From an uncultured Planctomycetales bacterium (GTDB taxonomy: Bacteria; Omnitrophota; Gorgyraeia; Gygaellales; Profunditerraquicolaceae): a stretch of DNA of 64,000 nt. Positions 1 to 35,467 of the stretch are shown one piece after another. Positions within the stretch are counted from its first letter, which is position 1. Each line of letters starts with the position of its first letter. The position numbers and the translations under genes are program-made. The notes under the pieces are model-generated. The model did not search any database. It was not told where the DNA came from and saw only the letters and a program-made list of their open reading frames with translations. Location of the stretch: contig CAZJFL010000001.1 in assembly GCA_964545575.1 (NCBI GenBank), forward strand, positions 69,878-133,877, given 5' to 3'.

Positions 1-1272
1 CAGCCTGATGGGGCTGGCTTCATGCATAAAGGTGGCCAGCGACATTTTAACCCTGCCTACAGCGGTAATAATATCCTGCCAGGAATCTTTTATGTTCTCC
101 AAAGACACTCCCGGATTATTCTCTACCGGCTCTACCTTGTTTTCCTGAGGCTGTTTTTGGAGAATATTCTGCGCAGGGGGATCTTTTTTGATATGGGTTA
201 ATTTAACCAGCGCTATCTCCAGCGGTATGCGCAAAGAATCCAGCCGCCTGGACATTTCATGCGTGTTGACCAATATGTTGAAAACGCTGAATATCTCTCC
301 CAGGCTAAAGGACCCCGATTGCTCCAGCAATCTATCGCAAATATCCTGCGGTAAATCTATTAATTTGGCGTCTGCCTGCGTGATTTTGGCGATCATCAGG
401 TTGCGGAAATGCTCAATCAGATTCGTCAGAAATACGCTGGTATCCTTGCCTTCTTCGATAACGGTGTTTAATAAATTGAGGGCTTTTTCTGTATCTTTTA
501 CTATTATGGTATCGGCTATGGCAAATAATGCCTCCTGCTCCACGAGGCCAAAAAGCGATACGATATCCTCTAGAGACACCTCGTTTTTAGCAAAGGCGAC
601 CAGCTGGTCTAAAACCGATTCCGCATCCCGAAGAGACCCGTCGCTGCTCTTGGCTATGGCAAATAATACTTCCTTGCTTACCTTGGCCTTTTCCTGCCCG
701 GCTATTTTTTCAAGCTGCGCAATTATCTCTAATACCGGGATGCGCCGGAAATCAAAACGCTGGCACCTGGAAAGCACCGTCGGGATAACCTTGTGGGGCT
801 GGGTGGTCGCGAAGATGAACTTAACAAACTCCGGAGGCTCTTCCAGGGTTTTCAGCAGCGCGTTAAAAGCATCCGTAGTCAGCATATGCACTTCGTCGAT
901 AATATAGATTTTGAATCTTGCGCTGACCGCGGCGAACTTTACGTTTTCCCGAAGCGTGCGGATTTCGTCGATACCCCTGTTAGAGGCGCCGTCTATCTCG
1001 ATGACGTCGAGGCTGCGCCCTTGCGTTATCTGGAGGCAGGAAGTGCATTTCCCGCAAGGATTAGCGGTTAGGCCCTCTTTACAATTTAAGGCCTTAGCTA
1101 AAATCCGGGCGGTAGAAGTTTTACCGACTCCGCGCGGGCCGGTAAAAAGATAGGCGTTGGCGACCCTCTCCTTCTCCAGGGCAGCTTTTAATTTGGTAAC
1201 TATATGGGCCTGCCCCACAATCTCATTAAAGCTCTGCGGCCGCCACTTCAAAGCAAAAACCACATATCCCAT
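1..1272 (-). CDS. dnaX: DNA polymerase III subunit gamma/tau, C-terminal part runs off the window start
   Basis: Minus-strand translation from ATG (complement of 1270-1272) gives MGYVVFALKWRPQSFNEIVGQAHIV...FTGPRGVGKTSTARILAKALNC...IIDEVHMLT...SRCQRFDF, i.e. Walker A, DEAD-like box and clamp-loader motifs. There is no stop before position 1. It is absent from the ORF track only because it is truncated by the window edge; the plus-strand ORFs 188..907, 793..1071 and 911..1153 are its shadows. Confidence 0.9.
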   Translation of the reverse strand, partial: MGYVVFALKWRPQSFNEIVGQAHIVTKLKAALEKERVANAYLFTGPRGVGKTSTARILAKALNCKEGLTANPCGKCTSCLQITQGRSLDVIEIDGASNRGIDEIRTLRENVKFAAVSARFKIYIIDEVHMLTTDAFNALLKTLEEPPEFVKFIFATTQPHKVIPTVLSRCQRFDFRRIPVLEIIAQLEKIAGQEKAKVSKEVLFAIAKSSDGSLRDAESVLDQLVAFAKNEVSLEDIVSLFGLVEQEALFAIADTIIVKDTEKALNLLNTVIEEGKDTSVFLTNLIEHFRNLMIAKITQADAKLIDLPQDICDRLLEQSGSFSLGEIFSVFNILVNTHEMSRRLDSLRIPLEIALVKLTHIKKDPPAQNILQKQPQENKVEPVENNPGVSLENIKDSWQDIITAVGRVKMSLATFMHEASPIRL

Positions 1273-1273
1273 C

Positions 1274-2608
1274 TTATAAATCCTTACTCTTTAAACCCAG
1301 CTCTGCGATTGCCTGCTCAGGGCTACTGGTATATTTACGGCAGAACCTGGTGACCTGCTGTATGTCGGTAATGCCCTTTTCTGAAAGCGCATCCACCAAT
1401 CTCACCCTTCTCTTTAATTCCTCGACCAGCTCTCTGGAAGATCTGCCGCTTATCTGGGAGAGCCTGTCCCTGTAGGTGCCGCCCCCTCCCGGCTCAAGGA
1501 ATTCGTGCTTGGGCAAATCATAAGACCAGAGAGAGCCCAATAAAACCGTGTTTTTTTCCATCCCGCCGGTCTCAGCCAGCTCTCCTACCACGCGCTTGAT
1601 CTGGCCGTCTACTTTAAACCGGCGCATAACCACAAAGACATCGATTAAGTTTATCAGCGCGTTGGGTATATTCATCGGTTCGTTTTCCAGGCGCATTACC
1701 GTCTCTCTGGGTGTGGATGCGTGCAGGGTCCCCATGCAATACTTGCCGATATTCATGGCGGTCATCAAATCCTGGGCTTCTCTGCCCCTGACCTCTCCCA
1801 CAATCACTCTATCCGGGCGCATGCGTAAAGAGTTCTTGACTAAATCCGCCAGCGTCGTTTCCTCATCACTCTCCAGGCGCGAACAATTCTCTTCCAAATC
1901 GGTATTTAACTCTAAGGTGTCCTCAATAACCACTATCCGTTCTTTTGCGGGGATAAAACTAAAAAGCGCGTTTAATAAAGTGGTCTTGCCCGAACCCGGG
2001 CCTCCGGAGATGATAATATTTGCCGGCTTGACATTAAGGCCTTCTACGTAAAGCCAAAGCTGCGCGGCTAATTCAGGGTTAAGCGCGCCGTTATTCACCA
2101 GCTCGATGATGCTTAAGGGTTTTTCTTTGGCGCGGGTGATGGTAATCTGCGGCCCGAAGGGGGAATACACGATGTTGGCTCTTCCCTTTACTTCGGCAAG
2201 CTCGACGTTATTTATCTTTTTGATATCTTTCCTCCCCGAGAAAAAAACCAGCTTTTTGATAAAGAGGTCCAACTCTTCGCGGGAAGAAAACTTTTTATCC
2301 GTAGTGATCATGCCTACCCTGGTCTTGTGCACATAGATAGGAGAAAGATAGTTGATCATAATATCTTCCACTTCCGGGTCGGAAAGAAACTCCTCGATGA
2401 TCCCGTAGGAAAGAAACTCGTTAAAAAACTGCTCTAACTCCAGCCCCTTGCATTTATGGATAAACCTCTGGCAGACGGGAGAATTATAGTATTCCAAAAA
2501 AACCTGAAAGATGACCTCACGTTTGCAGGTCAGGTCTTGCAGCAGAAAAAGCTTACCCAATAGCTTATCCAGTATATCGTTTTCAATAGCGATTCTTTCT
2601 TTATCCAT
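1274..2608 (-). CDS. Type II/IV secretion system ATPase (TadA/CpaF/FlaI-like)
   Basis: 444 aa with Walker A GGPGSGKTTLLNALFSF, Asp box VIEDTLEL and His box GTLHAS, the architecture of the GspE/VirB11/FlaI family. Its stop lies 2 nt upstream of the dnaX start, consistent with co-transcription. Confidence 0.8.
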   Translation of the reverse strand: MDKERIAIENDILDKLLGKLFLLQDLTCKREVIFQVFLEYYNSPVCQRFIHKCKGLELEQFFNEFLSYGIIEEFLSDPEVEDIMINYLSPIYVHKTRVGMITTDKKFSSREELDLFIKKLVFFSGRKDIKKINNVELAEVKGRANIVYSPFGPQITITRAKEKPLSIIELVNNGALNPELAAQLWLYVEGLNVKPANIIISGGPGSGKTTLLNALFSFIPAKERIVVIEDTLELNTDLEENCSRLESDEETTLADLVKNSLRMRPDRVIVGEVRGREAQDLMTAMNIGKYCMGTLHASTPRETVMRLENEPMNIPNALINLIDVFVVMRRFKVDGQIKRVVGELAETGGMEKNTVLLGSLWSYDLPKHEFLEPGGGGTYRDRLSQISGRSSRELVEELKRRVRLVDALSEKGITDIQQVTRFCRKYTSSPEQAIAELGLKSKDL

Positions 2609-2622
2609 ATTTTCTCCTTATT

Positions 2623-2686
2623 GGGCATGCACTCCGCTCGCTAAACCGCTTGTCGCGGTTTGCCCTTCGGGCCGCTCGCTTGAGTG
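2623..2686 (-). ncRNA. Candidate structured RNA element, copy A, next to tRNA-Ser(GCT)
   Basis: GCACTC-CGCTCGCT-[hairpin AAACCGC/GCGGTTT]-[GCCC-UUCG-GGGC]-CGCTCGCT-GAGTGC. It shares its architecture with the copy at 6590-6646 but shows compensatory changes in the stems. Strand of function is uncertain. Confidence 0.4.
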
Positions 2687-2721
2687 CCGAAAAAATTTTG
2701 TTTGTCTCAAAATTTTTTCGG
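2687..2721 (-). terminator. Perfect AT-rich hairpin abutting and overlapping the tRNA-Ser(GCT) 3' end
   Basis: CCGAAAAAATTTTG-tttgtctc-AAAATTTTTTCGG, a 13-bp stem. A similar hairpin lies downstream of tRNA-Ser(TGA). Confidence 0.4.
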
Positions 2722-2808
2722 AGAGGCAGGGATTCGAACCCTGGGGGCCAGTTACCCAGCCCAATTGCTTAGCAGGCAACTCCGTTAAGCCAGCTCCGGC
2801 ACCTCTCC
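2719..2808 (-). tRNA. tRNA-Ser(GCU), class II with long variable arm
   Basis: Manual fold of GGAGAGGTGCCGGAGCTGGCTTAACGGAGTTGCCTGCTAAGCAAT...GGTTCGAATCCCTGCCTCTCCG gives a 7-bp acceptor stem, 3-bp D stem, anticodon loop CUGCUAA and a T arm GGTTCGAATCC. CCA is not encoded. Confidence 0.85.
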
Positions 2809-2877
2809 AAATTCAATGAGCGCACAATTTACGGAACGAAGTGAATGTAAATTGTATGCGCGAATTAATCCCGCACG

Positions 2878-3333
2878 CTATTTATTACGTTTGCGGGAAA
2901 AAAATTCCGTTAATAAAGAGCTGCATTCCTTTTCTAAAATCCCGCCCTTTACTTTAATGCGATGATTTAATTTCTTATGATTTATAATATTCACTACAGA
3001 GCCGCATGCGCCTGTTTTGGGGTCCTTTGCGCCGTAATACAGGTTCTTAATGCGCGCCAGAACAGAAGCACCGGCGCACATACTGCACGGTTCAATTGTA
3101 ACATAAAGACAGCATCCGGACAACCATTTGCTCCCCAGGTAATTAGTCGCAGAAGTCAAAGTCAACATCTCGGCGTGTGCGGTAGGATCCTTCAGGGATT
3201 CAACTTGATTATATCCGCGGGCGATAATCCTATCTTTATAAACTACCACCGCTCCGACGGGAACTTCATCTTTTTCAAAGGCTTTACGGGCTTCCTTTAA
3301 AGCCTCCTGCATAAAACGGGTATGTTTTAGCAT
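2878..3333 (-). CDS. tadA: tRNA-specific adenosine(34) deaminase
   Basis: 151 aa with the CDA-fold zinc motifs HAEMLTL and IEPCSMCAGA. Its size matches TadA, and it sits immediately downstream of its substrate tRNA-Arg(ACG). Confidence 0.85.
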   Translation of the reverse strand: MLKHTRFMQEALKEARKAFEKDEVPVGAVVVYKDRIIARGYNQVESLKDPTAHAEMLTLTSATNYLGSKWLSGCCLYVTIEPCSMCAGASVLARIKNLYYGAKDPKTGACGSVVNIINHKKLNHRIKVKGGILEKECSSLLTEFFSRKRNK

Positions 3334-3345
3334 TGCCTAAATAAG

Positions 3346-3419
3346 TGCGCCTGGCTGGGATCGAACCAGCAACAACCAGCTCCGTAGGCTGATGCTCTAT
3401 CCAATTGAGCTACAGGCGC
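3346..3419 (-). tRNA. tRNA-Arg(ACG)
   Basis: GCGCCTGTAGCTCAATTGGATAGAGCATCAGCCTACGGAGCTGG...GGTTCGATCCCAGCCAGGCGCA, with anticodon loop CUACGGA. This is the A34-to-I editing substrate of TadA. Confidence 0.85.
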
Positions 3420-3465
3420 GTTAATCTTTTTGCCTCCTGTAGCGAATCCGCCAACGTTCTGTGGC

Positions 3466-3481
3466 AGAGAGCTACAGGCGC
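3466..3481 (-). repeat. 15-16 nt exact copy of the tRNA-Arg(ACG) 5' end (gagctacaggcgcgt), about 47 nt upstream of the tRNA
   Basis: An exact match to tRNA positions 1-14 plus one flanking base, sitting in an imperfect hairpin CCTGTAGC...GCTACAGG. Confidence 0.6.
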
Positions 3482-3486
3482 GTATC

Positions 3487-3798
3487 TTAAAGCTGAAGGA
3501 TAATTTCAAAGAGGAACTTCATATCCAGAATCGCAAGCAAGATCAAAATAGGTCCTGCTATCAGGTGGTAATTAAATAACAGGTTATCTAGCCAGGTTAT
3601 ATTGGCGTCCAAGGGGACAAGCGCAGGCGTATGAAACACCTCCAGTTTTAAGCGCTTGTCTATCTTATAATAAATCTCCAGCGAGAAAGTAAAAATCATG
3701 CTTATGATACAGATTAATCCGTAAGTAACGAAAACTAAGGCGCTTAAAAACCACCCCAATTCATCGACAGTCATGAAATTGATATTGGTATTAAACAT
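3487..3798 (-). CDS. Small hydrophobic membrane protein, hypothetical
   Basis: 103-aa ORF with two predicted TM stretches (LGWFLSALVFVTYGLICIISMIF; LIAGPILILLAILDM). No recognisable family. Confidence 0.35.
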   Translation of the reverse strand: MFNTNINFMTVDELGWFLSALVFVTYGLICIISMIFTFSLEIYYKIDKRLKLEVFHTPALVPLDANITWLDNLLFNYHLIAGPILILLAILDMKFLFEIILQL

Positions 3799-3856
3799 TT
3801 TTGCGTTCCTTTCTCGTCACTACGCCCATTGTCGGACAAATAATCCTAGTACTAAT

Positions 3857-3993
<137 letters not shown>

Positions 3994-4003
3994 CAGATAT
4001 GAA

Positions 4004-5005
4004 TTAGACTTTTGAATTCTTATAAGACCTAAATCTCTCTATATGTTTACTATTATGACTACCGATTATTTGCATATATTTGTTAACTTCTTTTCTATCA
4101 TAAATGAAAATATGCCTTCCTCCGGCAGTTTTGCAATTTAAACTAAACCTCAGAAACATTTTATACGCCGAATTCAAAAGAGCTTTTGAATGACTCGTAA
4201 AACACAAACCCATATGCCTGTATTTAATTCCCTTGGTAGTGTGATTATGGAAATAAATACCTCCATCGGTATCCATTAAGCCCCTCAGGCAACTTTTTAC
4301 AAACTCGTTATCCTTAAAAATCCATTGCGGCACATCTGTGCCATTTAACATCTTGTTCCCTTTCTTCATACCGCAATTTATCAGAAAAAGAACGAGGTTT
4401 TTACTCGATACTGTAACAACAATGGTATTTTTATCCCTGACTGTGACAGTAGAGGTTATCTTAAATAAATCAGTGACAATTTTTTTGATGAAATAGGCAT
4501 AATCCCTGTCAGTTTTATTATTATAGATTCTGACTTGATGTTCATTTATTGAGCCATCGCCTAAAAGAATCCCAATAAATTCTGCTAACAAAGAAGATCT
4601 TCGAGGATAAATAATATTTTTCCTTAACTTAAAACCTACCTTTTTAGCGAATTCCGGGTCATTCCGAAATTTCAAAGCAGAGACCATACCCCCTTTTCTT
4701 CTGCCTTCTACTGTACCAAGACGCCCGTATAATTCATTCCGCCTTAAAGCCCCCAACCTTGCCGCGCTCTTAATATTCCAATCATCCGGGAGAACTTCTA
4801 TTCTTGGAACAGAAATTCTTAGTTTCTTCTTTAATGATTGAAGAGAAACGTAATTCATTTGATATTTATCCCTTCGCCAGTCAAATAAAGTTCGCTTATC
4901 CACCTTGCAAATTCCGGCTAAATTATGCCAATCAAGATTATTTTCTTTCTTAATCTTCCCCAGAAAACTTCTCTGTTTATTTTCTAGAAATTTTACTCTT
5001 GGCAT
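4004..5005 (-). CDS. Double-motif LAGLIDADG homing endonuclease, free-standing
   Basis: Two LAGLIDADG motifs (LAEFIGILLGDGSI and LRGLMDTDGGIYF) about 100 aa apart, plus an N-terminal basic HTH-like region. The true start is MPRVKF (ATG at 5003-5005). The track ORF 4004..5191 is artificially extended by reading through tRNA-Ser(CGA) and the 59-bp repeat. Confidence 0.75.
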   Translation of the reverse strand: MPRVKFLENKQRSFLGKIKKENNLDWHNLAGICKVDKRTLFDWRRDKYQMNYVSLQSLKKKLRISVPRIEVLPDDWNIKSAARLGALRRNELYGRLGTVEGRRKGGMVSALKFRNDPEFAKKVGFKLRKNIIYPRRSSLLAEFIGILLGDGSINEHQVRIYNNKTDRDYAYFIKKIVTDLFKITSTVTVRDKNTIVVTVSSKNLVLFLINCGMKKGNKMLNGTDVPQWIFKDNEFVKSCLRGLMDTDGGIYFHNHTTKGIKYRHMGLCFTSHSKALLNSAYKMFLRFSLNCKTAGGRHIFIYDRKEVNKYMQIIGSHNSKHIERFRSYKNSKV

Positions 5006-5048
5006 AATATAATTCCAACCGCTCTGCCACCTCTCCAAGAATTTTATT

Positions 5049-5107
5049 GTATGGCGGCGCCGAAGCCAGAGGCTTCGGCATCCGCCATGTTTTTCAAGAG
5101 AAAAACA
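5049..5107 (-). repeat. 59-bp perfect direct repeat, copy 2
   Basis: Identical to 3857-3915 and positioned immediately 3' of tRNA-Ser(CGA). Confidence 0.85.
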
Positions 5108-5196
5108 TGGCGGAGAGTGGAGGATTTGAACCTCCGTACCTCTTACGAGGTAACGCGCTTTCGAGGCGCGCGCTTTCAACCACTCAGCCAACTCTC
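5107..5196 (-). tRNA. tRNA-Ser(CGA), class II
   Basis: GGAGAGTTGGCTGAGTGGTTGAAAGCGCGCGCCTCGAAAGCGCG-[variable arm]-GGAGGTTCAAATCCTCCACTCTCCGCCA, with anticodon loop CUCGAAA. CCA is encoded. Confidence 0.85.
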
Positions 5197-5381
5197 CAAA
5201 ATTTAAACGGACCCGTTTTGTTTACTTAAGCCGCTTCTCGAAGACCGCAAGCGCCGAATTCATATTGTCGGGGCTTCGATGAAATCCCCCATAGTCGGCA
5301 TTATCATCTTCAATCGCGCAGTCTGCAATACCAGCGTATTTACATATCCATTCGACCGCTTCACGCATGCCGTCGATACCA

Positions 5382-6461
5382 TCACCCTCCGGGTTCGGGT
5401 CCTGTTTTTACATAGGTTCTTTTGCCAAATGAATTACTACGGCCATCAAGACAAGTTCCGCAAACCGGTAAGCTTTTTCTATCCGCATGTATTTTTCTTC
5501 TAAGATTTTGGTATTTTCCATTTCTCCAGATATCCCGTAAATCGTCTCGGAAAATATTTCCCATTATATGAAAAGATGCTAGATCGCTACAGCAAGGAGT
5601 TACATCGCCGTTAGAATTGATGACCGTGTAATACTCGATAGAACTACAGGAATTCGGTACTGCGACCTCGTTTACAAAAAGTCCGTCTTTTTCAACGTAG
5701 TTTCTATTAAACGAGGTATCGCGGGGAAAAATCTCTTTTGCTACTTTCTGAAAGTCAGAGCCATCAAAACCGATACCGACCGCTTTTTCCCTATATACAT
5801 CAGCATGCAGTTTTCCGGACATCTCTAACATCATTTGGCGTTGATGTTCGTTATGTTTCATGACAATAAATTGTAATTCGACTATCGGCTTTCTAGATTT
5901 CAGCTCTTTTTTTGCTTGATAGATTAATTCAAATCCTTTTATAACTGCGCTAAAATCAGCTCCTTTTCGGTATTTGTTATAGGTTTCGTGATCCGCGCCA
6001 TCAAGGCAGATAATTAAGTAATATAGGCCGCTTTTAACAACATATTTACAATATTCGATATCCTTAAAAAAAGTACCGTTCGTACATATGCGGATTCTAA
6101 TTCCAGATTCAGTGGCGTATCTAACCATTTGTAGAATATCTTTATGAAGGAAAGGTTCGCCAAGATTCCATAAATCTATATGGGCAATATAAGATCTAAC
6201 TTCATCAACGATTTTTTTAAATTCCTGCAGGCTCATTGATCTTGCTAGCCGATTTAATTTATTCGTACCTGTGGGGCATGCGATACAGCGGAGGTTACAA
6301 AGATTTGTCGGCTCTATAACAAGATAAAAAGGCAGAGGGGAAAATAGCGACTTTCCCGTTAATCCTTTTAATAATTTATATAAAATAATGTCAAAACGTC
6401 TTTTCTTGATTATTAAACAAAGCGCTTCTATTTTTTCAGTGAGGTATTTCATGAAATTCAT
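5382..6461 (-). CDS. Radical SAM protein with C-terminal SPASM/twitch domain
   Basis: CNLRCIACP (CxxxCxxC) in the N-terminal part and a Cys-rich C-terminal region (TPCCSDLASFH...CGTCLDG). A 47-codon continuation in the +1 frame immediately after the stop suggests a possible frameshift or a small downstream ORF. Confidence 0.8.
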   Translation of the reverse strand: MNFMKYLTEKIEALCLIIKKRRFDIILYKLLKGLTGKSLFSPLPFYLVIEPTNLCNLRCIACPTGTNKLNRLARSMSLQEFKKIVDEVRSYIAHIDLWNLGEPFLHKDILQMVRYATESGIRIRICTNGTFFKDIEYCKYVVKSGLYYLIICLDGADHETYNKYRKGADFSAVIKGFELIYQAKKELKSRKPIVELQFIVMKHNEHQRQMMLEMSGKLHADVYREKAVGIGFDGSDFQKVAKEIFPRDTSFNRNYVEKDGLFVNEVAVPNSCSSIEYYTVINSNGDVTPCCSDLASFHIMGNIFRDDLRDIWRNGKYQNLRRKIHADRKSLPVCGTCLDGRSNSFGKRTYVKTGPEPGG

Positions 6462-6514
6462 TATTTTGTTTGAAAGTTTATTTCTATTATTTTACCATTA
6501 TTTCGGTAGCCCTA

Positions 6515-6556
6515 CGATTTCGAGGCGCGCGCTTTCAACCACTCAGCCAACTTTCC
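6515..6556 (-). repeat. Diverged copy (40/42) of the 5' half of tRNA-Ser(CGA), positions 1 to about 42, upstream of the radical-SAM gene
   Basis: ggaaagttggctgagtggttgaaagcgcgcgcctcgaaatcg versus tRNA ggagagttggctgagtggttgaaagcgcgcgcctcgaaagcg. Similarity ends after the anticodon loop. Confidence 0.75.
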
Positions 6557-6589
6557 AAAGCTATAAATTTTCCTTATCAGAATGTATTG

Positions 6590-6646
6590 TGGTGCTAGCA
6601 CCACGCTCGCTATTTTGCTTGTTGCAAAATTACGCTCGCTTTGGTG
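6590..6646 (-). ncRNA. Candidate structured RNA element, copy B, next to tRNA-Ser(TGA)
   Basis: GGTGC...CGCTCGCT-[hairpin ATTTTGC/GCAAAAT]-CGCTCGCT-TTGGTGCC. It has the same architecture as 2623-2686, with covarying stems. Confidence 0.4.
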
Positions 6647-6681
6647 CCGAAAATTTTTTCTTTATCAGAAAAAATTTTCGG
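6647..6681 (-). terminator. AT-rich perfect hairpin abutting the tRNA-Ser(TGA) 3' end
   Basis: CCGAAAATTTTTTC-tttatcag-AAAAAATTTTCGG. Confidence 0.4.
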
Positions 6682-6765
6682 AGGCGGAAGGATTCGAACC
6701 CTCGATGGGCGTAAACCCACAACGGTTTTCAAGACCGCCGCATTCAACCGCTCTGCCACGCCTCC
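6679..6765 (-). tRNA. tRNA-Ser(TGA), class II
   Basis: GGAGGCGTGGCAGAGCGGTTGAATGCGGCGGTCTTGAAAACCGT-[variable arm]-GAGGGTTCGAATCCTTCCGCCTCCG, with anticodon loop CUUGAAA. Confidence 0.85.
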
Positions 6766-6770
6766 CTCTC

Positions 6771-7448
6771 TTACCTTAAAAATAATTGCCTAAAGATAAG
6801 GTAAAATATATCGCTTGCCGCCCGGAAAGAACCCGAATAAAAATTGACCAACGAAAACTCTTTAAAAATAAAGCTCAGGCCCAGCCCAAGCAACGCAATA
6901 TTAACCAGGTACAGGAAAGAAAAACCAAAGAGATAGTTGGCCTTTAAAAAATCCCCCTGCTTCAGGCGCAGAGATTTTGCGCTGAATACAAGGTGCAGGG
7001 CGATGCTAAAGCCAAAAAAGAAAATAAAATAATTTATTAGATCCGCCGATTTAAAAATAGCCGCGGCCGGCGCATAGAGGACAAACAGGATGATGGTATA
7101 GACGGGTAATAGATAGGGCGCGAATTTTACCAAGGGATGAAAAAACTTAAATATTGCCTCTACCAGCTTCTGCCCCCTGGAATAAACTGTTACCGGCTCC
7201 CAAAGAAACAGATAAACCGCAAGAAACGCGATAACACCGCCCCAAAAATACCACTGAAGTTTAAAATCTATAAGATCAAGCTCCTTGATAAAGGCAACCG
7301 ACAGTGAATAAACAAAAGGCAGCAGGCAAAGCCCCAGAATGAACTTTACGATGCCGAAAACGCGGCCGGAGAAACCGGACATTCTAGGCACGGGAGCGCT
7401 GATTTCCACTTTGGGAATTTCTTTTTTAAGGGATTCTTTCTTTTTCAC
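6771..7448 (-). CDS. Polytopic integral membrane protein, hypothetical
   Basis: 225 aa with about 6 hydrophobic helices. No recognisable motif. Confidence 0.5.
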   Translation of the reverse strand: MKKKESLKKEIPKVEISAPVPRMSGFSGRVFGIVKFILGLCLLPFVYSLSVAFIKELDLIDFKLQWYFWGGVIAFLAVYLFLWEPVTVYSRGQKLVEAIFKFFHPLVKFAPYLLPVYTIILFVLYAPAAAIFKSADLINYFIFFFGFSIALHLVFSAKSLRLKQGDFLKANYLFGFSFLYLVNIALLGLGLSFIFKEFSLVNFYSGSFRAASDIFYLIFRQLFLR

Positions 7449-7457
7449 AATAAATTT

Positions 7458-8726
7458 CTATCCTATCCTCTCTTGGCCGTCAAGATATGCCTTTAAAACC
7501 TCAGGGACAATAACTGATCCGTCTTTCTGCTGATAATTTTCTAAGATAGCTACCAGGGTGCGCGCCAAAGCCACTCCGGAGCCGTTTAAAGTGTGCACAA
7601 AATCTAATTTTTTAGTATCTTTTCTTCTGAACTTTATATTTGCCCTGCGGGCCTGAAAACTTTCAAAATTACTGCAGCTGGAAACCTCCAGCCACTTATC
7701 TATTCCCGGGGCATAGGCCTCTAAATCATAACATTTGCTCGCGGCAAAACTTAAATCTTGCGTCGGCAAAACCGCTACCCTGTATGGAAGGCCAAGAAGT
7801 TGCAGTACCTCTTCGGCATCTGCGACCAGTTTTTCCAATTCGTCATATGAACTTTCCGGTTTCACAAACTTGACCAGTTCTACCTTATCAAACTGGTGCA
7901 CCCTGATCAGGCCTTTGGTGTCTTTGCCGTAGGAACCTGCTTCCCGGCGGAAGCAGGCGGTATAGGCGGTATAATAAACCGGCAACTTATCTTCATCCAG
8001 TATCTCATCGCGGAATATATTGGTTAGCGGGACTTCGGCGGTAGGAATAAGAAACAGATCATCATCTTTTAAGCGGTACATGTCTTCTTCCAGTTTCGGG
8101 AGCTGGCCGGTTCCGGTCATCGAGGCGCGGTTGACTAAAAACGGCGGGGATACCTCGGTGTAACCGTGTTTTTTGATATGTAAATCCAGCATAAAATTAA
8201 TCAGCGCCCGCTCCAGCCTGGCGCCCCAGCCTTTATAAAGTATGAAGTTTGAGCCGCTAATCTTTGCCGCCCGGTTAAAATCGATGATATCCAGATGCTG
8301 GCTGATTTCTATGTGGGTAGCCGGTTTAAAATCGATTCTTTTAGGTTCGCCCCAGGAACGCACTATTTCTTTCTTTGTCGGGTCTCCGACAGGAACAGAT
8401 GCGTGCGCTATATTCGGGATAACTAAAAGCAGCTCGGACAGCTGGATATCCAGCTTTTTGACTTCGTCTTCCAGCTTACCGATCTCCTGCGAAACCTTCT
8501 TCATGGAAAATATTTTATCCTTGGCGTCTTTCTTAGCCTTTAACAAAGCGCTGATCTCATCATTGGCTTTGTTTTGCCTGGCGCGGTAATCTTCTAATTC
8601 GGAAAGGCTCCTGCGGCGCAGATCGTCTAATTTAAGCAAGCTATCCAGGTCCAGCTTTAAATTGCGATTCTCCAAAGACTGCCTTACCAGATCCGCGTTT
8701 TCTCGGATAAACTTTAGGTCTAACAT
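7458..8726 (-). CDS. serS: Seryl-tRNA synthetase
   Basis: 422 aa with an N-terminal coiled-coil tRNA-binding arm and class II aaRS motifs (FRREAGS...[12 protein letters not shown]...[10 protein letters not shown]). It lies next to four tRNA-Ser genes. Confidence 0.95.
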
Positions 8727-8752
8727 AGTTACCTCTCTTTAGCTGTCTTCTG

Positions 8753-10213
8753 CTATCCCTTAATAACGCACAATGGCCGCATACGACAGACGCGTTTGGA
8801 GATTCCTGCGCGATGCACCACATCTACTACGTCGTTAACATCCTTGTAGGCCTGGGGTGCTTCTTCTACGAGTGTTCCTCTACCTGAGGCCTTAACCATT
8901 ATACCCTTGGATTCCAATTCTTTCAATAAGGTAGCTTCATTTATCGACCTGCTTGCGGCGGTGCGGGATTTTAACCTGCCTGCGCCATGGCAGGTCGAAC
9001 CGAAAGTTTCTTCCATGGCTTTTTGGGTACCCACTAAGAGATAAGAATTTCTCCCCATATCTCCGGGTATAATCACCGGCTGGCCTATTTTTTTATACCT
9101 TTCAGGCAACGCCGGATGCCCCGGGCCAAAAGCGCGGGTGGCGCCTTTACGGTGGACGCAGAGCATTTTTTCTTTTCCTTCAATAGTATATTTTTCGATC
9201 TTGGCGATATTGTGCGCGACGTCGTAAATCAAGAACATCCCTAATTTCTGCCAAGAGATAGCGAATATTTTTTCAAAAACCTTACGGGTAAGATGCATTA
9301 AACACTGCCGGTTTGCCCAGGCATAGTTTGCCGCGCACTTCATCGCTCCCAGATACGCCTTACCTTCGGCAGAATTAACCGGTGCGCAGGCCAGCTGCCT
9401 GTCCGGGACATTGATCTGGTATTTCTCGAGGCAATGTACCATATCTCTGGTATAGTCCTCGCAAATCTGATAGCCCAATCCCCGTGAGCCGGAATGAATC
9501 ATCAGCGTAATCTGCCCAAGATTTAAACCTAATTCATCAGTTATATCCCTATCGTATAATTGATCGATGGCCTGCACTTCCAGGAAGTGATTCCCTGAAC
9601 CTAAGGTGCCGGACTGGGCCTTACCTCTTTCGTAAGCCCGCTGGGAGACCGTATCCGGATCAGCCCCCTGGATGGCGCCGTTCTCTTCAGTGCATTCCAG
9701 GTCATCTTCCGTGCCGTAGCCTTTTTCTACCGCCCACTTTGAACCTTTAAGTAAAATCTCCTTTTCTTCTCTGGCGCTTACCCTGATATCGCCTTTAGAG
9801 CCAACTCCTGCAGGAATATCATTAAATAAAGCGTAAACCAGGTCTTTTATTTTATCTTTTATATCTTCAAATTGAAGGTTGGTTTTAAGCATGCGCACGC
9901 CGCAATTTATGTCAAAACCGACCCCTCCGGGAGAAATTACGCCTCCGTTTTCGATATCGGTCGCCGCCACCCCTCCAATGGGAAAACCATAGCCCCAGTG
10001 GATATCGGGCATAGCCATTGATGCATTTACTATGCCGGGCAAAAACGCCACGTTAGCTACCTGCTCCGCTGCCTTATCCTGCCTGATATCTTTCAATAAT
10101 TTTTCATCGGCATAGATAATCCCGGGCACGCGCATCCCCCTTTTATAGCTTTTAGGTATCCGCCAGCGGAAATCGTCAATTTTCTCTAAAGGTACGGCCG
10201 GGTTTTCAGACAT
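8753..10213 (-). CDS. rtcB: RNA-splicing ligase RtcB (3'-phosphate/5'-OH RNA ligase)
   Basis: 486 aa matching the RtcB signature regions (MPDIHWGYGFPIGG, GFDINCGVRML, SGSRGLG, HNIAK, HRKGATRA). Confidence 0.95.
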   Translation of the reverse strand: MSENPAVPLEKIDDFRWRIPKSYKRGMRVPGIIYADEKLLKDIRQDKAAEQVANVAFLPGIVNASMAMPDIHWGYGFPIGGVAATDIENGGVISPGGVGFDINCGVRMLKTNLQFEDIKDKIKDLVYALFNDIPAGVGSKGDIRVSAREEKEILLKGSKWAVEKGYGTEDDLECTEENGAIQGADPDTVSQRAYERGKAQSGTLGSGNHFLEVQAIDQLYDRDITDELGLNLGQITLMIHSGSRGLGYQICEDYTRDMVHCLEKYQINVPDRQLACAPVNSAEGKAYLGAMKCAANYAWANRQCLMHLTRKVFEKIFAISWQKLGMFLIYDVAHNIAKIEKYTIEGKEKMLCVHRKGATRAFGPGHPALPERYKKIGQPVIIPGDMGRNSYLLVGTQKAMEETFGSTCHGAGRLKSRTAASRSINEATLLKELESKGIMVKASGRGTLVEEAPQAYKDVNDVVDVVHRAGISKRVCRMRPLCVIKG

Positions 10214-10622
10214 CCAAAATCACCTCTGCCTGCCAGCCGCCTGCCTTCTTTGCGATTTTTAATTGATGGTAAGTGGCGGCTTTTATCTCGGTGTTGACTT
10301 TATAGTTATTGATATTGCTTGCCACGGCAACTGCCTCCAGGCGCTTCTGGTTTATTTTTTTTATGCGTAAATCCTCAAAAATCAGGCCCTTAGCCGAAGA
10401 TAAAGATATTAATTCATTCAGCCAGTTAATCAGGAGCTCCTCTAGATTATCCGCTTCCTGGACTATCGCCAAATTATGCGGCTTTGTATTTTTAATTTTC
10501 TTTTTCTCTGCGATGATCTGGAATATGGCGAGGCCGGCGTTCCTGAACAGGTCTTTTAAAGAACCGCCTTTTACCCTGATGCCTATATCTGCGGTATGGT
10601 CGATAAGTTCGTATTTAACCAC
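10206..10622 (-). CDS. Archease (RtcB activator)
   Basis: 138 aa beginning MVKYELIDHTADIGIRVKG, the conserved archease N-terminal HTAD motif. It overlaps rtcB by 8 nt, consistent with an operon. Confidence 0.85.
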   Translation of the reverse strand: MVKYELIDHTADIGIRVKGGSLKDLFRNAGLAIFQIIAEKKKIKNTKPHNLAIVQEADNLEELLINWLNELISLSSAKGLIFEDLRIKKINQKRLEAVAVASNINNYKVNTEIKAATYHQLKIAKKAGGWQAEVILDV

Positions 10623-10637
10623 GCAGTTATAATTTTA

Positions 10638-10713
10638 TGGTGGGCCATGCGGGAGTCGAACCTGCGACCTTGACATTAAGAGTGTCCTGCTCTACCAATT
10701 GAGCTAATGGCCC
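10638..10713 (-). tRNA. tRNA-Lys(CUU)
   Basis: GGGCCATTAGCTCAATTGGTAGAGCAGGACACTCTTAATGTC...GGTTCGACTCCCGCATGGCCCACCA, with anticodon loop CUCUUAA. CCA is encoded. Confidence 0.8.
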
Positions 10714-10776
10714 GGATTTGATTTTAGATTTATTATTTTACCCTAAAACAGGATGCTTTGCAAGATAAGGATTTAG

Positions 10777-10850
10777 TGCGCCTGGCAGGAATTGAACCTG
10801 CAACGCCTAGCTCCGAAGGCTAGCGCTCTATCCAATTGAGCTACAGGCGC
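10777..10850 (-). tRNA. tRNA-Arg(UCG)
   Basis: GCGCCTGTAGCTCAATTGGATAGAGCGCTAGCCTTCGGAGCTAG...GGTTCAATTCCTGCCAGGCGCA. It shares its 5' half with tRNA-Arg(ACG) at 3346. Confidence 0.85.
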
Positions 10851-10851
10851 A

Positions 10852-11571
10852 TTACAGAATCTCGCACTTATCTCCGATGATTTCCTTGATTTTTTGAAGT
10901 TTACTCTTACCTACCGGCAAGATACCGGGTTCGCTGGTAGCGCGTACGGGGGAGTTCAACTGTACTTTATCCGGGTTTATTTTATCTATGGCTTCTTTTA
11001 ATTTTCTGATCTCGGGCAGGACGTCATTTACGCCTTTTACCAGCATCACCTCCAGCCAAATCTGGCCTGCAAACTCTTTTCTTAAGGCTATCAGGCCGTC
11101 TATGATATTCTTTATTTTTATGCCGCTTAAAGGCCGGTCTATTTTTTCAAATACTTCTTGAGTTGCTGCATCCAAAGAGGGGACTATTAAACCTGCACCT
11201 GATAATTCCTGCCTGACCCCGGGCGCCCCCAACAATGAAGAGTTAGTCAATACCGCTACGGGAAGAGAAGTAATTTTTTTTATCTCCGTAATTAACCTGC
11301 CTATCTTATCATGTAAAAGCGGCTCGCCCGAACCGGATAGGGTAACATAATTTAACCTGCTTGCTTCCGAAGGGTTGTTTAGAAGCCATAGCTTAAATTC
11401 AGCCAGGATCTCCTCGGGCGGAATATACTCTTTACGTTCGCCGGTCTTATCGCTGGTCTTGCCCAGCTGACAGTAAATACAGTCGAAATTGCAGGCCTTT
11501 GAGGGAGTGAGGGTCATCCCTAAAGAAAACCCCAGCCTCCGTGAATTTACCGGACCGTACAGGTATAGCAT
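10852..11571 (-). CDS. Radical SAM domain protein (COG0731/PflX-like Fe-S oxidoreductase)
   Basis: YGPVNSRRLGFSLGMTL...CNFDCIYCQLG is a CxxxCxxC motif in a characteristic N-terminal context. Exact function unknown. Confidence 0.7.
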   Translation of the reverse strand: MLYLYGPVNSRRLGFSLGMTLTPSKACNFDCIYCQLGKTSDKTGERKEYIPPEEILAEFKLWLLNNPSEASRLNYVTLSGSGEPLLHDKIGRLITEIKKITSLPVAVLTNSSLLGAPGVRQELSGAGLIVPSLDAATQEVFEKIDRPLSGIKIKNIIDGLIALRKEFAGQIWLEVMLVKGVNDVLPEIRKLKEAIDKINPDKVQLNSPVRATSEPGILPVGKSKLQKIKEIIGDKCEIL

Positions 11572-35287: not shown

Positions 35288-35359
35288 TTTAGTCTCCTCC
35301 CTTAACCCTTAATAAATAGGAAACCCTTATGCCAAATACATAAGGGTTATACACATTCA

Positions 35360-35455
35360 CTCCTCCTTTTCCTACGCTGGTATTATCCAGATCAGGTTAT
35401 CAGGGTCACCCCGCTTAAGCGGGGACTCTCAGGCCGTTATCACGACCTCCCCATA
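35360..35455 (-). promoter_or_regulatory. TPP (THI-box) riboswitch in the thi4 leader
   Basis: On the minus strand: GGGGUGACCCUGAUAACCUGAUCUGGAUAAUACCAGCGUAGGAA plus an upstream CUGAGAG, the two conserved THI-element blocks. Confidence 0.75.
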
Positions 35456-35467
35456 ATCTTATTTATT

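Follow-up and report, generated by a model that had tools for sequence, protein, structure and literature searches.

A predicted double-hairpin trailer family at the 3' ends of tRNA and tmRNA genes in Candidatus Omnitrophota

We analysed a 64,000-nt stretch of DNA from an uncultured bacterium placed in Omnitrophota (contig CAZJFL010000001.1, positions 69,878 to 133,877 of the forward strand; hereafter the window, whose own numbering is used below), and focused on a structured element that starts inside the gene for tRNA-Ser(TGA) and extends on the minus strand from 6681 to 6598. As judged from its sequence and predicted fold, this element (copy B; the window holds another, copy A) is a member of a conserved family of 3'-trailer modules fused to the genes of tRNAs, transfer-messenger RNA (tmRNA) and a few other small stable RNAs in Candidatus Omnitrophota, a group of uncultured, mostly ultra-small bacteria. 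We tentatively read the module as a cis-acting, protein-recognised platform for processing or handling stable-RNA precursors, a reading that we consider plausible though short of probable.

The initial annotation of this DNA had described copy B as a second copy of a structured element beside a tRNA-Ser gene that keeps an octamer pair and an AT-rich hairpin, and both descriptions held: the element abuts tRNA-Ser(TGA), and the octamers and the hairpin are present and conserved across the family. That annotation had not seen that the AT-rich hairpin (hairpin 1) starts within the tRNA, at the discriminator base, nor that the family is phylum-wide and also follows other tRNA isotypes and tmRNA. 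When the tRNA was folded together with its trailer, C71, C72 and G73 of tRNA-Ser(TGA) (6681..6679) formed the first pairs of hairpin 1, and the acceptor stem, hairpin 1 and the core helix adjoined without linkers. The core, which we call the GA rod, follows hairpin 1 directly and consists, in order, of a basal stem (P1), a bulged A, an octamer duplex, a UA bulge and an apical stem-loop. The parts of copy B are as follows.

6679..6765, minus strand: tRNA-Ser(TGA), no CCA encoded, found by ARAGORN and by the Rfam tRNA model (57.8 bits)
6647..6681, minus strand: hairpin 1, predicted by folding, a 15-bp AT-rich stem CCGAAAAUUUUUUCU / AGAAAAAAUUUUCGG
6598..6647, minus strand: GA-rod core, 50 nt, identified by pattern match, covariance-model match and covariation
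6642..6647, minus strand: P1 5' strand GCACCA, pairing with UGGUGC at 6603..6598 (6 bp)
6641, minus strand: bulged A between P1 and octamer 1
6633..6640, minus strand: octamer 1, AGCGAGCG (plus strand CGCTCGCT)
6632..6631, minus strand: UA bulge, 3' of octamer 1
6630..6624 with 6618..6612, minus strand: apical stem AUUUUGC/GCAAAAU, 7 bp, with loop AACAA at 6623..6619
6604..6611, minus strand: octamer 2, AGCGAGCG (plus strand CGCTCGCT)
6598..6603, minus strand: P1 3' strand UGGUGC, from folding and covariation
6565..6597, minus strand: tail, UA, then GCACCAC, then a degenerate hairpin-1 remnant UUCUGAUAAGGAAAAUUU

Along the minus strand the layout reads ...CCUCCG AAAAUUUUUUCU GAUAA AGAAAAAAUUUUCGG CACCA A AGCGAGCG UA AUUUUGC AACAA GCAAAAU AGCGAGCG UGGUGC UAGCACCAC..., in which the pentaloop of hairpin 1, GAUAA at 6666..6662, is GNRA-like and departs by one base from the family consensus GACAA. 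The two octamers pair antiparallel as A.G, G-C, C-G, G.A, A.G, G-C, C-G, G.A, that is, with four Watson-Crick and four G.A pairs, a central tandem GA among them, and copy B as a whole folds far better than shuffled sequence (z = -5.5). The name 'CGCUCGCU' given to the element in the initial annotation is that of the wrong strand, because the element runs in the same direction as every tRNA that it adjoins and the folded minus (tRNA) strand reads AGCGAGCG; a fold of the opposite strand is disfavoured because the paired octamers there would be C.U mismatches.

In the tail, GCACCAC repeats the 5' strand of P1, and the same tail is present in L008 and L011 (L-numbers label the loci matched in the genome and metagenome scans described below). 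We take this tail (UAGCACCAC, then UUCUGAUAAGGAAAAUUU) to be, by its sequence, what is left of a second unit in tandem; full tandem units are seen in L009, L040, L054, L066 and L140. A perfect 16-nt palindrome, GUGGUGCUAGCACCAC, lies at 6589-6604 and overlaps the 3' strand of P1; in the minimum-free-energy fold it forms an alternative hairpin that competes with P1, and it may be a remnant of the next unit or a switch.

Copy A occupies the same position relative to its own tRNA and is listed here for comparison.

2629..2720, minus strand: copy A, directly after tRNA-Ser(GCT)

Its hairpin 1 lies at 2720..2688 and its core, 59 nt long, at 2687..2629, with the octamers (plus-strand CGCTCGCT) at 2635-2642 and 2673-2680. 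P1 is GCACUC/GAGUGC, as against GCACCA/UGGUGC in copy B, the core has an additional small hairpin GCCCGAAGGGC, and the fold is again far more stable than that of shuffled sequence (z = -4.0). The central hairpin had been said to differ between the two copies while keeping its loop type, which is the case, and the difference turned out to be compensatory covariation.

The octamer count in the window is not significant by itself (6 against 2.4 expected; 4 of 100 shuffles reach 6), but the whole architecture of the element is far beyond chance. We searched with the pattern GCACNNAAGCGAGCG-N15-45-AGCGAGCGNNGTGC, which has 25 fixed bases and by our own estimate should match about 0.03 times by chance in 596 Gb. 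In a species-representative genome set it matched 67 loci, almost all of them in metagenome-assembled genomes of Candidatus Omnitrophota; a few carry other taxonomic labels, and one is a GC-rich Gemmatimonadaceae genome. At least 119 loci in metagenome contigs matched as well. No match was found in viral contigs, and a phage origin was set aside. Because the pattern fixes the octamers and most of P1, a covariance model (R1) was built and run over all fetched loci, where it gave 187 unique matches; it scored copy B, which is in the training alignment, at 97.8 bits and copy A, which is outside it, at 81.5 bits (E = 1e-19). As a separate observation, L022:1327-1389 on the minus strand, in a Gemmatimonadaceae metagenome-assembled genome, holds a core copy rich in GC, with a GACGA-loop hairpin ahead of it.

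The family is uncatalogued as far as Rfam 15 and literature searches show. A gathering-threshold scan of the window with Rfam 15 returned tRNAs and one thiamine pyrophosphate (TPP) riboswitch and nothing on the element, a permissive scan of 6480-6800 returned only sub-threshold chance matches, all at or below 26 bits and far under the cut-offs, and full-text literature searches found no description of it. None of the known ribozyme models matched in these scans of the window and of 6480-6800. The TPP riboswitch lies at 35352-35463 on the minus strand and scores 60.6 bits against a gathering score of 54.3.

Aligning the two copies with their homologues, as had been proposed when the element was first noted, upheld both structure and covariation. 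The alignment (A1) holds 59 non-redundant copies, and the structure tested on it was the one read from the two window copies. Standard pairs were formed in 96.8% of cells, compared with 77.5% after shuffling and 34-44% when pairing partners were slid, and the covariation score was 0.498, compared with 0.143 and at most 0.10, respectively; 20 of the 31 pairs have changes on both sides. Double compensatory changes occur in 12 of the 14 stem pairs of hairpin 1, six of the seven apical-stem pairs covary, and so do both free positions of P1, which covaries fully in divergent copies (AUUCUU/AAGAAU, CAUCG/CGAUG, UGCCG/CGGCA). RNAalifold independently recovered hairpin 1, P1 and the apical stem. The two window copies fold at -39 to -43 kcal/mol, with z = -4 to -5.5.

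Both octamers read AGCGAGCG in 155 of the 187 unique matches, and the exceptions disclose how they pair. Octamer 1 position 2 and octamer 2 position 7 change jointly from G-C to A-U in five sequences, and octamer 1 position 6 and octamer 2 position 3 change jointly in eight (A-U in six, C-G in two), making 13 unique divergent copies with compensatory octamer changes around an invariant CGA / GAG core. These changes fix the antiparallel register A.G, R-Y, C-G, G.A, A.G, R-Y, C-G, G.A and rule out the register proposed by RNAalifold, which is shifted by 1 nt, since position 2 pairs with 7' and position 6 with 3'. At the centre of the duplex, a 5'-GA-3'/3'-AG-5' tandem is flanked by C-G pairs, which is the classic context for sheared GA pairs. 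The bulged A ahead of the duplex is present in 167 of 187 copies, and the 5' strand after it carries a UA or a UUAA/UAAA bulge. Many apical stems, such as AGCGAGGC/GCCGAGCA and the strand-swapped AGCCGAGC/GCGAGGCA, hold further tandem G.A pairs.

The length of hairpin 1 is tightly constrained: of 155 copies, 124 have a stem of 15 bp, 17 one of 14 bp and 6 one of 16 bp. Its loop is GACAA in 114 of 155 copies, with GAUAA, GGCAA and GCCAA as variants, and the apical loop is GACAA in 49 of 59, with GGCAA, GAUAA and others; both loops thus vary as G-N-N-A-A, which by analogy would be the variation that a GNRA-like pentaloop with its third base looped out allows. The base facing the discriminator covaries with it (A-U in 39, G-C in 13, C-G in 3). 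Core length is 50, 52, 59 or up to 74 nt, and the octamers lie from 29 to more than 50 nt apart.

We then considered which strand and which molecule carry the fold. On the tRNA strand, the stems of hairpin 1 and the apical stem contain 29 G.U pairs against 6 A.C (p = 1e-4) and 12 G.A against 1 C.U, and the purine-purine pairs of the octamer duplex are possible on that strand only. The hairpin always brings the octamers together despite their variable linear spacing. This asymmetry of wobble and G.A pairs, the purine pairs, the constant juxtaposition of the octamers and the sense orientation of the copies argue for a fold of the transcript and against a double-stranded DNA site, so the sequences point to RNA made from the tRNA strand.

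Placement after stable-RNA genes is the rule. In 49 of 74 genome copies and, among the matches listed, in 83 of 130 metagenome copies, 28-33 nt separate the start of the core from the 3' end of a tRNA or tmRNA that ARAGORN calls upstream on the same strand; the other copies are mostly later units of tandem arrays, copies after tRNAs or tmRNAs interrupted by group I introns, or copies at contig edges. The isotypes followed by the element are Ala, Ser, Val, Leu, Tyr, Asp, Ile, Cys, His and Lys, and restriction to class II (long-arm) tRNAs is ruled out by the Ala, Val, Asp, Ile, Cys, His and Lys carriers. Some copies lie in ribosomal RNA (rRNA) operon spacers in the order 16S-tRNA-element-23S (L046, L037, L019, L062), and others lie between co-oriented tRNAs 12-20 nt apart (L041, L026, L018, L053), with the orders Leu-element-Val in L041, Cys-element-Leu in L026 and Tyr-element-Gly in L018 and L047. 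Of the tRNAs that carry the element 47% encode CCA, as do 41% of those that lack it, and a tie to CCA-less tRNAs and RNase Z was rejected. A processing stem in which the tRNA 5' leader pairs with the tail beyond the core, giving a four-way junction, was also rejected, as true leader-tail combinations reached -5.08 kcal/mol and mismatched ones -5.19 kcal/mol (p = 0.72).

The element is not an intrinsic terminator: there is no U tract, since the core is followed by UAGCAC or AUGCCC in the window copies and the AT-rich hairpin 1 by GCAC, there is no terminator-like call at either copy, and some members of the family are placed within the spacers of rRNA operons or between tRNAs transcribed together.

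Two kinds of small conserved RNAs, apparently structured, directly precede the element at some loci, and neither is recognised by Rfam or ARAGORN.

L009:4150-4286 and L069:~10-135: first kind, about 135 nt, terminal stem GGGU...ACCC, minimum free energy -40 kcal/mol
L033, L089:10800-10884 and L173: second kind, ending ...GCGGUKCGAAUUGGUUGCAGACGSGUCCG, with a promoter-like TATAAT upstream

Group I introns were also seen in tRNA and tmRNA genes of Omnitrophota (L028:3210-3421, L047:4236-4427, L055:4208-4408, L014:2919-3552). Because the introns interrupt them, these genes escape ARAGORN; the intron-split tRNA is probably tRNA-Tyr, by synteny between tRNA-Thr and tRNA-Gly.

We compared the element with known systems part by part. 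Its loop is identical to that of the boxB hairpin of the phage P22 nut site, whose GACAA pentaloop has been solved as a GNRA-like fold with the C looped out (PDB 1A4T; PMC12550061), and the G-N-N-A-A variation fits such a boxB-type fold. The P22 boxB has a 5-bp stem, stands next to boxA, is phage-encoded and is bound by the N peptide, whereas the element has stems of 15 and 7 bp, lacks boxA, is chromosomal and is fused to tRNA 3' ends. A sequence resembling boxA (consensus about GCUCUUUAACAA) occurs nowhere in the aligned unit, so that a lambdoid nut site or rrn antiterminator agrees with the element in its GNRA-like loop and disagrees in boxA and the stem of about 5 bp. We know of no N-like protein for the element. 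The paired octamers share the self-complementary core GCGAGC, with its 5'-GA-3'/3'-AG-5' tandem flanked by C-G, with the tandem sheared G.A duplex r(GGCGAGCC)2, which, together with related 5'-CGAG-3' motifs, was reportedly characterised by SantaLucia and Turner by NMR and thermodynamics; that duplex is a model oligonucleotide, whereas the element sets the motif in a hairpin, with terminal G.A pairs, a bulged A and a bulge of 2-4 nt. A kink-turn of the L7Ae-binding type likewise places tandem G.A/A.G pairs beside Watson-Crick stems with a bulge nearby, but the element has no 3-nt bulge 5' of the G.A pairs and its tandem GA lies between Watson-Crick pairs; the 5' strand carries its only bulges, one A ahead of the duplex and UA or UUAA beyond it, neither of which has both the side and the size that a kink-turn requires.

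Repeats of the REP, BIME and REPIN type are, like the element, short structured intergenic sequences that occur several times per genome, sometimes in tandem, and are gained and lost between relatives; they can affect RNA processing and stability and are mobilised by RAYT transposases. They are species-specific, near-identical within a genome, found in both orientations and without a tie to tRNA ends, whereas the element is phylum-wide, diverse within a genome, in one orientation and base-paired with the tRNA's own 3' end. Identification with them fails in that the core is common to dozens of Omnitrophota metagenome-assembled genomes, where REP-like copies would be near-identical and confined to a species or genus, and in that copies are co-oriented with the upstream tRNA or tmRNA and arrays run head-to-tail, where REP-like copies would lie in both orientations or as inverted pairs. 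No RAYT (Y1 transposase) was found among the window ORFs scanned, and a dispersed genome-wide REP-like hairpin was rejected because hairpins of at least 8 bp with a GNNAA loop number two in the 64-kb window, hairpin 1 of copy B and one chance site. A palindrome-associated or miniature inverted-repeat element (PATE/MITE) of the IS200/IS605 type, whose subterminal hairpins leave out target nucleotides, does not fit, because the discriminator is itself part of the hairpin 1 stem and covaries with the base facing it; the bases after the discriminator vary (CCA, UUG, CUU, UUU) and offer no fixed tetra- or pentanucleotide target.

Functional tRNA trailers such as the sponge of the 3' external transcribed spacer (3'ETS) of Escherichia coli leuZ, and the stems in rRNA precursors cut by RNase III, resemble the element in being co-transcribed with a stable RNA, excised, and functional or nuclease substrates. 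3'ETS-leuZ acts by single-stranded pairing with small RNAs and is a single locus, and in the rRNA stems the flanks of the mature RNA pair with each other, whereas the element is a self-contained double hairpin without leader-tail pairing. A bulge-helix-bulge motif and a hammerhead-like CUGAUAA...GAAA in hairpin 1 of copy B were set aside, being not conserved in the family or wrong in geometry. The tRNA-trailer junction, where a self-cleaving ribozyme would have to cut to free the tRNA 3' end, would lie inside a perfect helix, a setting unfavourable for in-line attack. In its parts the element resembles the boxB loop, tandem sheared GA duplexes, the dynamics of REP-like repeats and functional tRNA trailers; as a whole it matches none of them.

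Units often follow one another head-to-tail in arrays of two or three (L009, L051, L054, L066, L116, L127, L140). In later units the 3' strand of hairpin 1 is retained, complementary to the tRNA end of the locus in question, and the 5' strands are degenerate; some units have collapsed between the octamers (for example L040 unit 2), some arrays mix subtypes (L009 and unit 3 of L054 and L066), and vestigial starts of a next unit appear as AUACCA or GCACCAC. In 10 of 155 copies, about 6%, hairpin 1 has an inverted loop (UUGUC or UUAUC), and subtypes of the apical stem recur across different loci and genomes. Within a genome, the five VGKG01 copies (L035, L037, L040, L060, L066) and the four JBEKHW01 copies all differ in hairpin 1 and apical stem, the VGKG01 copies keeping the core; such divergence around a kept core indicates selection on structure and not a recent burst of repeats.

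The element lies in a neighbourhood centred on tRNA function, positions 1..11000 of the window, with seven tRNA genes in this first 11 kb, all on the minus strand. It comprises four tRNA-Ser isoacceptors, SerRS, RtcB, archease, tRNA-Lys and tRNA-Arg(TCG), and a tRNA-Arg(ACG) that adjoins a TadA-like deaminase; the ATPase gene after copy A is co-oriented with it, its Shine-Dalgarno sequence lying 13 nt downstream of the element. The window is syntenic with several element-bearing Omnitrophota genomes (SerRS identity 74-78%), in the order SerRS, 225-aa ORF, tRNA-Ser(TGA) ... tRNA-Ser(GCT), element, ATPase; the tRNA-Ser cluster is syntenic across Omnitrophota genomes, and the genes inserted between its tRNAs vary. 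For a functional tie of the element to its RtcB, archease or SerRS neighbours or to tRNA 5' fragments, we found nothing beyond proximity.

A second, different trailer family follows tRNA-Ser(GGA) and tRNA-Ser(CGA) in the same cluster (3911..3855 and 5113..5059, minus strand). It has the same two-hairpin layout, in which hairpin 1, CCGCCAUGUUUUUC-UCUU-GAAAAACAUGGCGG, starts at the acceptor end and is followed by a plain hairpin, AUGCCGAAGCC-UCU-GGCUUCGGCAU, without GA octamers. Relatives are also present at L035, L009, L050 and L184, one example being GGCACCGAAAC-AAUGU-GUUUCGGUGC.

The cluster also holds tRNA fragments and inserts. The 39 nt at 6556..6518 on the minus strand, between copy B and a radical SAM/SPASM ORF (6461..5382), are a pseudo-copy of tRNA-Ser(CGA), covering its 5' half through the anticodon loop and agreeing with the intact gene (5197..) in all but one position (38 of 39). 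Integration usually leaves a 3' fragment as its scar, of which a 5' duplication is the mirror image. Another 5' fragment of tRNA-Ser, GGAGAGGUGGCAGAGCGGUUGGAAU, at 5036..5012 on the minus strand, stands directly upstream of a LAGLIDADG endonuclease ORF (5005..4004). Elsewhere, L017 and L026 carry 5' fragments of tRNA-Val followed by GC-rich hairpins, and in L011:5000-5460 an ORF is flanked by a 17-nt direct repeat of the 3' end of tRNA-Ser(TGA); judged by eye without a domain search, this ORF is GIY-YIG-like. Such sequences suggest that these tRNA clusters are hot spots for selfish inserts. An att-type duplication of the tRNA 3' end does not account for the element itself, whose repeats are complementary to the tRNA 3' end and are not direct copies of it; the GIY-YIG insert in L011, a true direct-repeat case, looks different.

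The processing platform that we tentatively favour would work as follows. In the precursor RNA, acceptor stem, hairpin 1 and GA rod would meet without an unpaired linker, hairpin 1 starting at tRNA nucleotides 71-73 and sequestering the discriminator and the bases after it, whether these are CCA or not. The GA rod, with its 6-bp stem, bulged A, pseudo-twofold octamer duplex, 2-4-nt bulge, variable 7-bp stem and second GACAA pentaloop, would complete a rigid, length-constrained double hairpin to be read by a protein, plausibly a homodimeric double-stranded-RNA-binding protein or nuclease of the RNase III type. By marking where the tRNA-like domain ends on its 3' side, the platform would allow the stable RNA to be cut from the next tRNA, 23S rRNA or messenger RNA, and the trailer would be set free as a by-product. 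That something reads this structure in the precursor is suggested by the fixed acceptor junction, the length-constrained hairpin, the twin GNRA-like loops and the invariant G.A duplex; the fixed 15-bp stem and the shared G-N-N-A-A loops, in particular, may be signs of a trans-acting reader.

Several observations weigh against such a platform. The orthologous tRNA-Ser(TGA) genes in L009, L011 and L042 encode CCA and have no element, that of L035 has a different trailer, and genomes differ in which tRNA of the Cys-Leu-Val cluster precedes the element, be it Val, Leu or Cys; this patchy presence at orthologous tRNAs implies that the element is not essential for maturing any given tRNA. Its indifference to CCA encoding argues against a simple link to one 3'-processing pathway. 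The arrays, collapsed units and inverted loops look like the dynamics of repeat elements. The L022 copy lies in an intergenic region rich in other GCGAGCG-containing repeats, with no tRNA adjacent, and the GA-rod motif may therefore exist outside Omnitrophota in a different setting. The protein reader is putative, and we infer the protein binding and processing role of the element, as well as its transcription, the last from position and strand only.

The serious and main rival, possible if unlikely in our estimate, is a selfish non-autonomous repeat, REP- or MITE-like or RNA-mediated, that targets the 3' boundary of tRNA-like acceptor ends; its hairpins would be needed by the mobilising enzyme, and the tRNA would be affected, if at all, only in passing. 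Gain and loss at orthologous tRNAs, mixed-subtype arrays with collapsed units and vestigial next-unit starts, apical subtypes recurring across loci and genomes, and the inverted hairpin-1 loops in 10 of 155 copies all favour it, as do loci full of other selfish genes (LAGLIDADG, GIY-YIG and group I introns); moreover, the 3' ends of tRNA and tmRNA genes are classic targets of integrating elements. What speaks for selection on the transcript instead is the strict sense orientation and the excess of G.U over A.C, and a hairpin 1 that is specific to its locus and complements the discriminator and trailer of its own tRNA would be unexpected for a transposon end; in addition, the core is conserved phylum-wide, unlike species-specific REPs, and there is neither a linked transposase in what we saw nor a match in viral contigs. 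A selfish repeat is compatible with a processing platform, and the two are not mutually exclusive. Rather unlikely, in turn, is that the element signals a 3'-end maturation or quality-control pathway for the tRNA and tmRNA of Omnitrophota not known so far, in which a dedicated protein or nuclease would read two boxB-like GACAA loops and the tandem-G.A duplex at a fixed distance from the acceptor end, or that it is an RNA-borne parasite copying itself onto tRNA 3' ends, either of which would be a new class of element.

Slightly less probable still is that tRNA processing by RNase Z or RNase P frees the trailer as a stable small RNA of about 85-95 nt that would act in trans as a sponge or scaffold for a protein binding the GACAA loops or the G.A duplexes, an analogue of tRNA 3' external transcribed spacers. 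The very stable fold (-39 to -43 kcal/mol) would suit it, a dimeric binder would go well with twin conserved loops and a pseudo-symmetric duplex, arrays and multiple copies per genome would increase the dose, and the strong promoters of tRNA, rRNA and tmRNA genes would give high expression; yet such an RNA, whose accumulation is hypothetical, has no need of a hairpin 1 that pairs with the discriminator of its own tRNA or holds 15 bp. We regard as improbable a processive antitermination or anti-Rho signal of untranslated stable-RNA operons, comparable to P22 boxB or the put RNA of HK022. The loop identical to the P22 pentaloop agrees with it, put RNA has a two-hairpin, zero-linker layout resembling the element, E. 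coli rrn operons have a spacer antiterminator that the copies after spacer tRNAs (L046, L037, L019, L062) mirror, and copy A stands just upstream of the Shine-Dalgarno sequence of the ATPase gene; against these, the unit has no boxA-like sequence, a stem of 15 bp stands where boxB has 5, many copies follow tmRNA or terminal tRNAs with no obvious need for read-through, and most tRNA operons lack the element. Most improbable, and largely refuted already, is a feature at the level of DNA, be it a protein-binding site with direct octamer repeats, a cruciform, a palindrome due to chance or an intrinsic terminator: in DNA the octamers do form direct repeats, palindromic hairpins could extrude, and tandem sheared G.A also forms in DNA in the Y-GA-R context, but the variable octamer spacing argues against a phased DNA site, wobble and G.A pairs are asymmetric between strands, a terminator is contradicted by the missing U tract, the lack of terminator-like calls and the copies inside rRNA operons, and about 0.03 chance matches were expected where more than 180 were found.

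To our knowledge, nothing is known of RNA processing in Omnitrophota. With more than 180 sequenced examples, clear covariation, a precise and reproducible junction at the acceptor end and a distinctive build that joins tandem G.A pairs to boxB-like loops, the element is a candidate for a new RNA-protein recognition system or a tRNA-targeted repeat. A model of this family, absent from Rfam, would improve the annotation of Omnitrophota and stop its hairpins from being misread as terminators or spurious ORFs, and the module, compact (about 85 nt) and modular, is directly testable in vitro. If the reading as a maturation pathway or as an RNA parasite is true, the element would represent a new class of tRNA-linked RNA element.

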